A stretch of DNA of 55,171 nt from an uncultured bacterium (lineage in GTDB: Bacteria; Poribacteria; WGA-4E; WGA-3G), in assembly GCA_964623585.1 (NCBI GenBank), contig CAZURU010000002.1, positions 1 through 55,171 of the forward strand, read 5' to 3'. Under the pieces are notes generated by a model. That model worked only from the letters and a program-made list of their open reading frames with translations, had not been told where the DNA came from and did no database searches. Position numbers and translations under genes: made by a program. Of this stretch, positions 14,684-15,890 are shown one piece after another (the first letter of the stretch is position 1; each line of letters starts with the position of its first letter).

Positions 14684-15496
14684 ATGAAATTGAACGATAT
14701 AAGAAATGAAAACTGTATTGACTCCATGAAAATGATGAACGATGAGTTCGTTGACCTTGTTGTAACTTCACCTCCCTATGACGAAATGCGAGAATATGAA
14801 GGATATAGACTTGAAGAGTTTGAACAAATTGCTATGAATCTGCACCGAGTTGTTAAGGCGGGTGGTGTAGTTGTATGGGTCATTGGTGATCAGACGATAA
14901 AGGGAAATGAGACAGGAACTTCGTTTCAACAGGCACTCTATTTTAAAGAGATCGGGTTTAACCTATTTGATACAATGATATACTTGAAACCGCCAAGAGG
15001 GGCAGTTGGTAATAACAAAACTTATTGGCAATCATTTGAGTATATGTTCGTGTTTAGCAAAGGGCAACCTAAAACAATTAACCTGATTAAAGACAGGAAA
15101 AACAAAGAATCACGAAAGGGTGATATCGGCACAAAGCGCTTACCTGATGGGTCTTTATTGAAGTTAAACCGAGAAGGTTATGGTGATTATGGCAGAAGAA
15201 CGAATGTCTGGGAATATATGATTGGAAATGGACATTCCGCATCGGATAAAATTGCACACAAACATCCTGCTATATTCCCGGAGCAATTGGCACAAGATCA
15301 CATACTTTCTTGGAGCAACATAGGAGATTTGGTATACGATCCATTTCTTGGAAGTGGTACTGTCGCATTAATGGCTGAATTGAACAATAGAAATTATCTT
15401 GGCAGTGAAATAAATGCAAATTACTGTGAAATCGCTAAAGAAAGACTGAAAAGGAACCGTACGGCCGCCGAGCAACTAAAATTGTTGGAGGCTTAG
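14684..15496 (+). CDS. Beta-class DNA amino-methyltransferase (N4-cytosine or N6-adenine; N-4/N-6 methylase domain)
   Basis: ATG at 14684 follows GGAGG. Motif IV (TSPPY) is near the N-terminus and motif I (DPFLGSGT) near the C-terminus, which is the beta-class permutation. Confidence 0.85.
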   Translation: MKLNDIRNENCIDSMKMMNDEFVDLVVTSPPYDEMREYEGYRLEEFEQIAMNLHRVVKAGGVVVWVIGDQTIKGNETGTSFQQALYFKEIGFNLFDTMIYLKPPRGAVGNNKTYWQSFEYMFVFSKGQPKTINLIKDRKNKESRKGDIGTKRLPDGSLLKLNREGYGDYGRRTNVWEYMIGNGHSASDKIAHKHPAIFPEQLAQDHILSWSNIGDLVYDPFLGSGTVALMAELNNRNYLGSEINANYCEIAKERLKRNRTAAEQLKLLEA

Positions 15497-15497
15497 T

Positions 15498-15890
15498 GTG
15501 GTTCAAGAAGCAAAACCCCGCATTTGTAAGAAATGCGGAAGACTTTTGCCAATAGACGCGTTTGAACGAAACCGACCAAGTGTTTGGCGGAGTGAATGTA
15601 AAGAATGCCGCGCGTATAAGAAAGGAATACCGGCAAAAGTCAGAAGAGAATATGAGACTAAGCATCCTAAACCCCAAATAGGCGAGGAGTTTTATTGTAA
15701 AGTTTGTGAAAGAACTATAACCATTCAGACAACCAGAGATGTAAATTTAGATCATGACCATAAAACAGGGAAAATTAGAGGTTACATTTGCAACAGATGC
15801 AACACTGGACTTGGCAATTTTGATGATAATATCACTATCCTTAAAAGAGCTGTAGAGTGGATCAAAGGAACGCTTACATTTCTGTCTTAA
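15498..15890 (+). CDS. Endonuclease VII-fold (beta-beta-alpha-Me / HNH-like) nuclease, 130 aa
   Basis: GTG start 1 nt after the methylase stop. NLDHDHKTGKIRGYICNRCNTGLG matches the T4 gp49-type catalytic core. Four CxxC pairs (C10/13, C34/37, C67/70, C98/101). Confidence 0.8.
   Translation: MVQEAKPRICKKCGRLLPIDAFERNRPSVWRSECKECRAYKKGIPAKVRREYETKHPKPQIGEEFYCKVCERTITIQTTRDVNLDHDHKTGKIRGYICNRCNTGLGNFDDNITILKRAVEWIKGTLTFLS

Follow-up and report, generated by a model that had tools for sequence, protein, structure and literature searches.

A Barrel-less Hpy99I-Type Nuclease and a Linked Methyltransferase as a Probable Mobile Restriction-Modification Cassette in the Complex I Operon of Poribacteria

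Location and Layout of the Methyltransferase–Nuclease Gene Pair

We analyzed a 55-kb stretch of the chromosome of a Candidatus Poribacteria sponge symbiont (contig CAZURU010000002.1, 55,171 nucleotides; hereafter, the window), in which a gene for a beta-class DNA methyltransferase is followed by a gene for a 130-amino-acid (aa) nuclease. The two genes lie between nuoE and nuoF of the operon for respiratory complex I (8539–23370; nuoA, B, C, D, E, F, G, H, J, and L) and have the same orientation as these genes. The position of the pair inside this operon is absent from the initial annotation, which had been made from the window sequence alone. The NuoF protein of the window is 90–97% identical to those of 80 Poribacteria species genomes. 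The evidence described below makes it probable that the pair is a mobile, selfish Type IIP restriction-modification cassette of the Hpy99I family, working now or until recently.

The two genes are separated by 1 nt (TAG at 15494–15496 and GTG at 15498), as had been noted in the initial annotation. The methyltransferase open reading frame (ORF) begins with ATG at 14684; an alternative in-frame GTG lies upstream at 14666, but homologues and the sequence GGAGG at 14674–14678 support the start at 14684. The nuclease ORF extends to a stop codon at 15888–15890, and its GGAGG (15486–15490) is located within the 3′ end of the methyltransferase gene, such that both starts have GGAGG 5–7 nt upstream. 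The GC content is 0.36–0.39 across the cassette versus 0.44–0.49 in nuoF. No terminator was predicted between nuoE and nuoF on the plus strand, and consensus scans for promoters and terminators inside the cassette remained at background level. The ratios of nonsynonymous to synonymous divergence (dN/dS) relative to homologues were 0.06–0.16 for the methyltransferase and 0.10–0.29 for the nuclease, indicating purifying selection on both genes. Together with the many homologues of each gene, these values argue against a chance pair of ORFs.

Structural Features of the Nuclease

The initial annotation had described a T4 endonuclease VII core and four CxxC pairs, enough for two Cys4 zinc sites, in the 130-aa protein. 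The protein holds LDHDHKTGKIRGYICNRCNTGLG and the CxxC pairs C10/C13, C34/C37, C67/C70, and C98/C101, and all eight cysteines aligned to the repeats of Hpy99I. The assignment to endonuclease VII held at the Pfam level, as PF02945 (Endonuclease_7) matched residues 65–123 with an expectation (E) value of 6.7e-17, and the phage protein family phrog_2633, annotated as “endonuclease VII,” matched at 1e-25. It did not hold for T4 endonuclease VII itself, which aligned to residues 62–129 only (E value 2e-5) and left the first repeat of the nuclease without a counterpart in the alignment. The top match among PDB sequences was Hpy99I (PDB ID: 3fc3; E value 7.3e-17), in which residues 66–186 of the native protein aligned to residues 8–123 of the nuclease. 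Hpy99I, which had been named only as an analogy when a minimal Type II system was first suggested, is therefore the closest solved homologue (7e-17 versus 2e-5 for the T4 enzyme) and supports that suggestion. The sole PADLOC match of the nuclease was the REase_II model PDLC03494, which was covered at positions 66–186 of 190 and unmatched at positions 1–65.

To obtain structural information, we predicted the structure of the nuclease with AlphaFold2 using 49 homologues. The model had a mean predicted local distance difference test score (pLDDT) of 92.7 and displayed two strand/helix repeats. In a Foldseek comparison of this model with the PDB, Hpy99I was the only significant match (E value 7e-8, probability 1.00, 126 columns, and 32% identity). 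According to the alignment and the model, the nuclease is built from two zinc-stabilized beta4-alpha2 repeats.

In Hpy99I, a linker joins an N-terminal SH3-like barrel (residues 1–53) to two beta4-alpha2 repeats, both of which carry a Cys4 zinc site; catalysis depends on Asp148, His149, and Asn165, and the residues in contact with the bases are Asn83, Gln84, and Arg94 on the major-groove side and Asp162 and Arg170 on the minor-groove side (PMC2699513). The nuclease of the window begins 7 residues ahead of its first CxxC and has no room for an N-terminal barrel. Judged by the alignment, it corresponds to the DNA-contacting part of Hpy99I without the barrel and linker (residues 1–64). The two proteins share both Cys4 repeats, the catalytic Asp-His...Asn residues, and the equivalents of Asn83 and Arg94, and the Hpy99I system of Helicobacter pylori J99 (PDB IDs: 3fc3 and 3gox; a Type IIP system with the site CGWCG and N4-methylcytosine) is the best match in both sequence and fold, although the identity is only approximately 32%.

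Among the nucleases linked to the methyltransferase, which form a clade, all eight zinc cysteines are conserved and D85, H86, and N102 do not vary. N25 and R31 are invariant in this clade and in Hpy99I-like proteins, and are variable in more distant two-repeat endonuclease VII proteins. In the alignment, N25, R26, and R31 of the nuclease correspond to N83, Q84, and R94 of Hpy99I, and N99 and N107 to D162 and R170. The recognition loop between N25 and R31 is 5 residues shorter than that of Hpy99I. Because of this shortening and the replacements of Q84 by Arg, D162 by Asn, and R170 by Asn, a different target is expected, and the recognition site of the putative nuclease is probably not CGWCG. 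The clade also has a conserved hydrophobic C-terminal tail (GTLxxLx) that is missing from Hpy99I; compensation by this tail for the absent barrel is speculation.

Other small nucleases resemble the protein less closely. T4 endonuclease VII (PDB IDs: 1e7d, 1en7, and 2qnc), a Holliday-junction resolvase, has the beta-beta-alpha-Me core, one zinc site, and PF02945 in common with the nuclease, but is structure-specific rather than sequence-specific, and comes from a phage recombination context; neither this architecture nor this context is matched by the nuclease, which is flanked by nuoE and nuoF and has no close phage relatives. The homing endonuclease F-CphI of cyanophage S-PM2 (endonuclease VII motif DHHRN) belongs to the same catalytic motif family, but is phage-borne and has no methyltransferase. 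The phage proteins of PHROG 2633 (Rahnella phage Sarma103 ORF41 and proteins of cyanophages S-CBP2 and SS120-1) are, like the nuclease, barrel-less proteins of approximately 125–140 aa with two zinc repeats, and are 32–37% identical to it over approximately 90% of the length; they are free-standing among phage structural and replication genes and have no methyltransferase. The variability at the positions of Asn25 and Arg31 was seen in distant endonuclease VII-type relatives from the protein database, as distinct from these phage proteins. PacI, an HNH-type Type II enzyme to which the nuclease had been likened, is likewise a very small, dimeric, zinc-stabilized beta-beta-alpha-Me restriction enzyme, reportedly of 142 aa, but no sequence relation to PacI was detectable, and PacI was absent from the PDB sequence and fold matches of the nuclease. 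We know of no Type II restriction enzyme of 130 aa or fewer.

Structural Features of the Methyltransferase

In the methyltransferase, motif IV (TSPPY, residues 28–32; 14765–14779) precedes motif I (DPFLGSGT, residues 219–226; 15338–15361), which confirmed the permuted motif order given in the initial annotation and identifies a beta-class enzyme. Pfam PF01555 (N6_N4_Mtase) matched with an E value of 1.8e-40 over profile positions 1–221 of 221, and both the catalytic (SPPY) and the S-adenosylmethionine (AdoMet)-binding (DPFLGSGT) motifs are complete. The closest PDB matches were cytosine-N4 methyltransferases (PDB IDs: 8s9m and 8s9n; E value 3e-14), from which the product is predicted to be N4-methylcytosine. 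PADLOC models oMTase (1e-93) and MTase_II (7e-53) matched, as did the PHROG model “DNA methyltransferase.” M.Hpy99I (jhp0756) is a beta-class N4-methylcytosine enzyme with the site CGWCG (PMC3936762); it and the SPPY-containing methyltransferase of the window are likened here by class and description, not by sequence alignment.

The methyltransferase family is far wider than the nuclease clade, with more than 8000 matches below 1e-20 versus approximately 40 close nuclease clusters. Patescibacteria homologues (approximately 72% identical; P0135, P0146, P0150, P0165, and others) are fused to a LexA-type repressor, forming proteins of approximately 461 aa with LexA_DNA_bind and Peptidase_S24 domains, and in locus L095 a separate LexA-like gene (3221–3820) is divergent from the methyltransferase–nuclease pair. 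Such fused or neighboring LexA-like proteins may exert C-protein-like or SOS-linked control of the system.

Linkage of the Two Genes and Distribution of the Nuclease Family

Conservation of the pair in other genomes was a point on which the initial annotation had held that its reading could fail. We therefore examined gene neighborhoods starting from nuclease homologues (nine look-ups; 48–96% identity) and from approximately 72%-identical methyltransferases (three look-ups), which together gave 11 distinct contexts. The methyltransferase was adjacent to the nuclease in all 11 contexts, from at least three phyla, and none of them contained a nuclease without a methyltransferase. In eight of the nine nuclease-based look-ups, a PF01555 methyltransferase gene was directly upstream; in the remaining one (L008), a nuclease paralogue intervenes. 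The 1-nt gap is usual (also found in L001, L004, L179, L181, and L183), and the genes overlap in L002 and L009. All three methyltransferase-based look-ups, from Roizmanbacteria, Flavobacteriaceae, and a metagenome contig, revealed an adjacent nuclease. The pairs of the latter two are co-directional, with a LexA-family repressor gene upstream of that on the metagenome contig, and the Roizmanbacteria pair is convergent, with a nuclease that the record does not annotate as a gene. Co-location was kept down to 43–48% nuclease identity. The contexts are otherwise unrelated and include the nuoE–nuoF junction, a position between dehydrogenase genes, a locus at which sigma factor genes and an IS1595 fragment are neighbors, a contig that also encodes a Rep3 replicase and transposases, the vicinity of a phage-type integrase gene, and the inside of a fragmented Type ISP gene. 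In the last case (L181, 2073–5066; Poribacteria-like), the ORFs on either side of the pair match the coupler domain and the C-terminal domain of a Type ISP restriction enzyme, which suggests that the cassette landed in another restriction gene.

As a viral control, we searched for the methyltransferase family within 3 kb of endonuclease VII relatives (28–59% identity) encoded in 80 IMG/VR loci, and found it in one. In this single positive locus (L128, 1860–3198), a methyltransferase 48% identical to that of the window lies approximately 400 nt upstream of an endonuclease VII-like ORF that matches the second repeat only. Relatives in GenBank phages (at most 37% identity) lie between virion or polymerase genes and have no methyltransferase.

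Loss and damage were found on the nuclease side. Locus L065 has the methyltransferase without the nuclease, and nucleases beside an intact methyltransferase have the catalytic His replaced by Asn (L091) or have lost zinc cysteines (P0020 and P0030). This asymmetric decay, in which the methyltransferase survives and the nuclease is lost or damaged, fits a toxin-like nuclease of a restriction-modification system. Two tandem small-nuclease paralogues follow one methyltransferase in L008 (5036–6342) and L009 (5585–6408), and the second copy in L009 (P0030) lacks one zinc cysteine; the tandem copies could represent a heterodimer, a remnant of a tandem cassette, or decay.

A profile search with the nuclease against 1.84 billion cluster representatives yielded 104,640 matches at ≤1e-3, 27,107 at ≤1e-10, and 45 at ≤1e-30. 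The Poribacteria nuclease clade forms one cluster at 50% identity. The Asn/Arg pair is kept in approximately 30 of the top 50 representatives. In representatives of 185–255 aa, which match from about residue 60 or beyond, Asp/Glu162 and Arg170 are retained almost without exception, whereas positions 162 and 170 are variable in representatives of 123–166 aa. As such short representatives recur among the top 50, the barrel-less forms are a recurrent natural group rather than a one-off truncation, and the variable positions suggest that they probably have several specificities.

Exchange of the Cassette at the nuoE–nuoF Junction

We surveyed the nuoE–nuoF junction in the 80 Poribacteria species genomes. 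The two genes abut in most Poribacteria, with a spacer of either 13–17 nt or approximately 90 nt, the latter containing a hairpin (TTGTTGGG...CCCAAC). This hairpin (stem GTTGGG...CCCAAC without a T tail) is found in the cassette-free spacers of L014, L017, L036, and L069 and, in every carrier, immediately 3′ of the cassette; one possibility is that it is an RNA processing or stability element. The hairpin of the window was considered as a repeated mobile element, but only one copy (15912–15939) is present in the window and the hairpin occurs in cassette-free spacers, such that it belongs to the spacer.

Only four genomes carry the cassette at this junction: that of the window and those represented by L010, L013 (identical to locus L001), and L057. 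When the window was compared with L057, the synonymous divergence (dS) was 0.09–0.10 in the cassette, but 0.94 in nuoE and 1.19 in nuoF. The sliding identity between the two was approximately 97% in the cassette and approximately 85% outside it, with steps at the nuoE stop codon and approximately 30 nt into nuoF. The roughly tenfold lower divergence of the cassette than of its flanks indicates horizontal transfer of the cassette into the same junction. The nearest cassette-free relatives (L011, L012, and L025; nuoF dS 0.39–0.46) have the short spacer without the hairpin.

The left junctions differ among carriers. A second copy of the nuoE 3′ end (GCGCAG[C/T]TTGCAAACTAAA) is present at the left edge of the insert in L013 and L057, L010 shows a direct left join without this second copy, and the window lacks a leader of approximately 200 bp common to L010, L013, and L057. 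Within the window, the cassette is bordered by neither terminal inverted repeats nor a target-site duplication. The sole inverted repeat (15544–15571 and 15924–15951; 71% complementary) and some short direct repeats were considered as transposon-like ends, but look like chance. Because of the differing left junctions, recombination fits better than precise site-specific insertion, and we infer that the cassette moved together with the hairpin spacer and a scrap of donor nuoE by recombination at the conserved gene ends. The unit measures 1.3–1.5 kb and is bounded by the nuoE stop and the nuoF start. The pattern agrees with the described forms of restriction-modification mobility, among them allelic substitution and insertions that duplicate the target (PMC2853133).

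A related system occupies the same junction in another Poribacteria genome (L043; OX638351.1). At 4378–5718 of this locus, a 259-aa beta-class SPPY methyltransferase gene is followed by a gene for a 185-aa Hpy99I orthologue (E value 9e-63 to 3fc3). Gene order, orientation, and the two protein families are the same as in the window, but the L043 nuclease possesses the barrel and keeps all five contact residues, and the identities to the window proteins are 38% (nuclease) and 47% (methyltransferase). From these residues, the L043 nuclease is probably a CGWCG isoschizomer outside Helicobacter.

Unrelated genes also occupy the junction. In L022, L023, L054, and L079 (approximately 3900–5980), it contains a gene for a secreted protein of approximately 690 aa with WD40, cohesin, dockerin, and Por-secretion-tail domains, and in L037 (5339–5902) and L086 (5026–5637), it contains ORFs of 187 and 203 aa, respectively. 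The junction is therefore a general insertion hot spot. In L065 (3651–5407), a methyltransferase 83% identical to that of the window is followed by a second, DPPF-type methyltransferase, and no nuclease is present. The nuclease gene (15498–15509) and nuoF (15979–15990) of the window open with near-identical 12-nt sequences (GTGGTTCAAGAA and ATGGTTCAAGAA), both encoding MVQE and each following GAGG; this likeness may have arisen by chance, or it may be left over from, or serve as a substrate for, recombination at the junction.

Restriction-Modification and Alternative Explanations

Several observations weigh against a working restriction-modification system. Removal of the N-terminal barrel from Hpy99I abolished activity and solubility (PMC2699513), so that a barrel-less relative is not guaranteed to cut; this is the main caveat on activity. 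Three of the five base-contacting residues of Hpy99I are changed in the nuclease (Q84 to R26, D162 to N99, and R170 to N107), and the Pfam family His_Me_b4a2 gave no match to its first repeat. In a k-mer avoidance analysis of the window, CGWCG was not avoided (observed-to-expected ratio [O/E] 0.99), and no pentameric pseudo-palindrome stood out as tied to the cassette. The top PADLOC model of the methyltransferase carries the label “orphan methyltransferase.” Finally, the phage “endonuclease VII” proteins of the same barrel-less build are about as similar to the nuclease as Hpy99I is and look like free-standing homing nucleases, and homology alone therefore cannot choose between restriction and homing.

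The most serious rival is a homing-type selfish element, in which the 130-aa protein, as an F-CphI-like endonuclease with the DHHRN motif, cuts the empty nuoE–nuoF junction and the methyltransferase is a passenger or protects the element itself. Endonucleases of this kind are a documented homing family (PMC6083498), the closest phage relatives of two-repeat build sit between conserved phage genes in the manner of homing genes, several different inserts occupy the junction in different genomes, and near-identical cassettes are found there in lineages whose flanks differ by a dS of approximately 1. A homing enzyme should, however, be tied to one target, whereas the clade was found at 10 other unrelated sites and always with a methyltransferase; the inserts at the junction include genes as different as that for the 690-aa secreted protein and the small ORFs, which indicates a general hot spot; and the left joins (direct in L010, a duplicated nuoE 3′ end in L013 and L057, and a deletion of approximately 200 bp in the window) fit recombination better. 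The nuclease also retains the guanine-reading residues of Hpy99I, and the methyltransferase family was linked to just one of the 80 viral relatives. The strict linkage and the imprecise left junctions thus speak against a homing nuclease riding with an orphan methyltransferase, which had been offered as the alternative in the initial annotation, and we regard this explanation as decidedly unlikely. It is unlikely, too, that the cassette is a restriction-modification system that also homes, with its nuclease cutting unmethylated empty nuoE–nuoF junctions or nearby DNA and repair installing the pair. Such a system would explain the near-identical cassettes (dS approximately 0.09) at one junction with flanks at a dS of approximately 1, as well as the presence of two different Hpy99I-family systems at this junction.

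The methyltransferase might instead be an orphan or regulatory enzyme, serving epigenetic marking or protection against other restriction systems, beside an inactive or domesticated nuclease that might act as a DNA-binding partner or in repair or junction resolution. The PADLOC label, the far greater breadth of the methyltransferase family, the inactivation of Hpy99I by barrel deletion, and the nuclease copies without catalytic or zinc residues are in line with this explanation. The copy in the window and most homologues nevertheless retain every catalytic and zinc ligand, the nuclease is under purifying selection (dN/dS 0.10–0.29), and the two genes stay together across phyla in both co-directional and convergent arrangements, even where the nucleases are only 43–48% identical. 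The “orphan” label may itself reflect nucleases that are annotated as endonuclease VII or left uncalled, as in L090. We consider this explanation quite unlikely. A prophage remnant, consisting of a phage Holliday-junction resolvase and an anti-restriction methyltransferase, would account for the matches to PF02945 and to the PHROG models “endonuclease VII” and “DNA methyltransferase,” but no other phage genes are nearby, a search of 50,697 phage genomes gave no relative above approximately 40% identity, the T4 enzyme aligned to the second repeat only, and the insert is just 1.3–1.5 kb in size with edges at the nuoE stop and the nuoF start; such an origin is very improbable.

Proposed Mode of Action and Significance of the Cassette

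As a restriction-modification system, the cassette would act as follows. The methyltransferase would produce N4-methylcytosine on both strands of a short, probably CG-containing pseudo-palindromic site. By homology to the Hpy99I–DNA structure, a homodimer of the nuclease would clamp unmethylated DNA, with the first repeat (N25, R26, and R31) reading the major groove and the second repeat reading the minor groove, and the metal site of D85, H86, and N102 would cut each strand to leave 3′ overhangs. In Hpy99I, Asn83 forms hydrogen bonds with the N4 amino groups of both cytosines of the half-site (PMC2699513). As the equivalent Asn25 is invariant in the clade, N4-methylation could plausibly block cleavage via this residue. 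The order of the two genes, the 1-nt gap, the ribosome-binding site inside the methyltransferase gene, and the GTG start suggest that synthesis of the nuclease would be coupled to that of the methyltransferase, probably at a lower level. Because no terminator was predicted between nuoE and nuoF, the cassette is probably co-transcribed with the operon. Its spread among Poribacteria lineages, shown by the contrast in divergence between the cassette and its flanks, would have proceeded via recombination at the conserved nuoE 3′ and nuoF 5′ ends.

Hpy99I-type systems are already known, and the cassette is a small variant rather than a new kind of system. A paper on the homing family classed the methyltransferase-adjacent members of Helicobacter as restriction enzymes, and this 2018 survey found the Hpy99I-type restriction clade in Helicobacter only (PMC6083498). 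The novelty lies in a conserved, methyltransferase-linked, barrel-less form of 130 aa in which contact residues are changed, in the spread of this form among Poribacteria, Bacteroidota, and bacteria of the candidate phyla radiation, and in the exchange of the cassette at a junction within the complex I operon.

The 130-aa protein may cleave DNA as a Type II enzyme of new specificity, working without the barrel needed by Hpy99I. If active, it would rank among the smallest natural Type II restriction enzymes and represent a natural minimal Hpy99I; the barrel, essential in Hpy99I, would be dispensable in a natural lineage, and an enzyme of only two DNA-touching zinc repeats with altered base contacts would provide insight into DNA reading by beta-beta-alpha-Me nucleases and be a source of new specificities. 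As the methyltransferase family matches the PADLOC “orphan” model and the nuclease is annotated as endonuclease VII or left uncalled, genome surveys may underestimate the number of such restriction-modification systems, including surveys of sponge symbionts, in which restriction-modification systems are reported to be enriched (PMC5649159). The locus is also a clean example of a restriction-modification cassette, as we read it, that has colonized, and is exchanged at, an intergenic junction of an essential respiratory operon.

Features of the Locus and Neighboring Genes

The features of the cassette and its flanks are summarized in Table 1.

Table 1. Features of the putative restriction-modification cassette and flanking genes in the window
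Feature	Position	Strand	Basis
nuoE (complex I subunit E), left flank, outside the cassette	14096–14620	+	PF01257 (5e-51); NCBIfam NuoE models
Left edge of the cassette and leader; methyltransferase ribosome-binding site GGAGG at 14674–14678	14636–14683	+	Junction comparison; sliding identity
Beta-class DNA methyltransferase, 270 aa, predicted to produce N4-methylcytosine	14684–15496	+	PF01555; PDB; PADLOC
Catalytic motif IV SPPY of the methyltransferase (residues 29–32)	14768–14779	+	Sequence; aligns with TSPPY of 8s9m
AdoMet-binding motif I DPFLGSGT of the methyltransferase (residues 219–226), C-terminal to motif IV	15338–15361	+	
Predicted translational-coupling junction: GGAGG, TAG 15494–15496, 1 nt, GTG 15498	15486–15500	+	
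Hpy99I-type beta-beta-alpha-Me nuclease, 130 aa, barrel-less, putative restriction enzyme	15498–15890	+	PDB; PADLOC; Foldseek
First beta4-alpha2 repeat of the nuclease, predicted major-groove reader; Cys4 site C10, C13, C34, C37	15519–15689	+	Hpy99I alignment
Second repeat of the nuclease; Cys4 site C67, C70, C98, C101; D85 and H86 (15750–15755), N102 (15801–15803)	15690–15875	+	Hpy99I alignment
Hairpin TTGTTGGGTTCATTTCGTTCAACCCAAC on the right side of the cassette, no T run after it	15912–15939	+	Single copy in the window
nuoF (complex I subunit F), right flank; high-identity tract ends approximately 30 nt inside, near 16011	15979–17457	+	

Many short palindromes of 4 and 6 nt are strongly depleted in the window. 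CATATG was observed 0 times against 22 expected, and the O/E values were 0.10 for CTAG, 0.31 for TCGA, 0.43 for GGCC, 0.53 for CCGG, and 0.57 for GATC. This depletion is consistent with heavy restriction pressure on the genome and cannot be assigned to the cassette.

The complex I operon of the window contains other genes that do not encode complex I subunits. A gene for a Cu/Zn superoxide dismutase (PF00080, 2e-41) lies at 9867–10586 between nuoC and nuoD. A second insertion, between nuoD and nuoE (12123–14064), comprises two genes of the Uma2 family, a PD-(D/E)xK-like “putative restriction endonuclease” family, and a gene for a HicB-like antitoxin (12878–13075). The two Uma2 copies are 98% identical to each other over their first 300 nt (12123–12422 and 13291–13590), and the nuoD–nuoE junction of related Poribacteria contains variable Uma2, HicB, and WYL genes.

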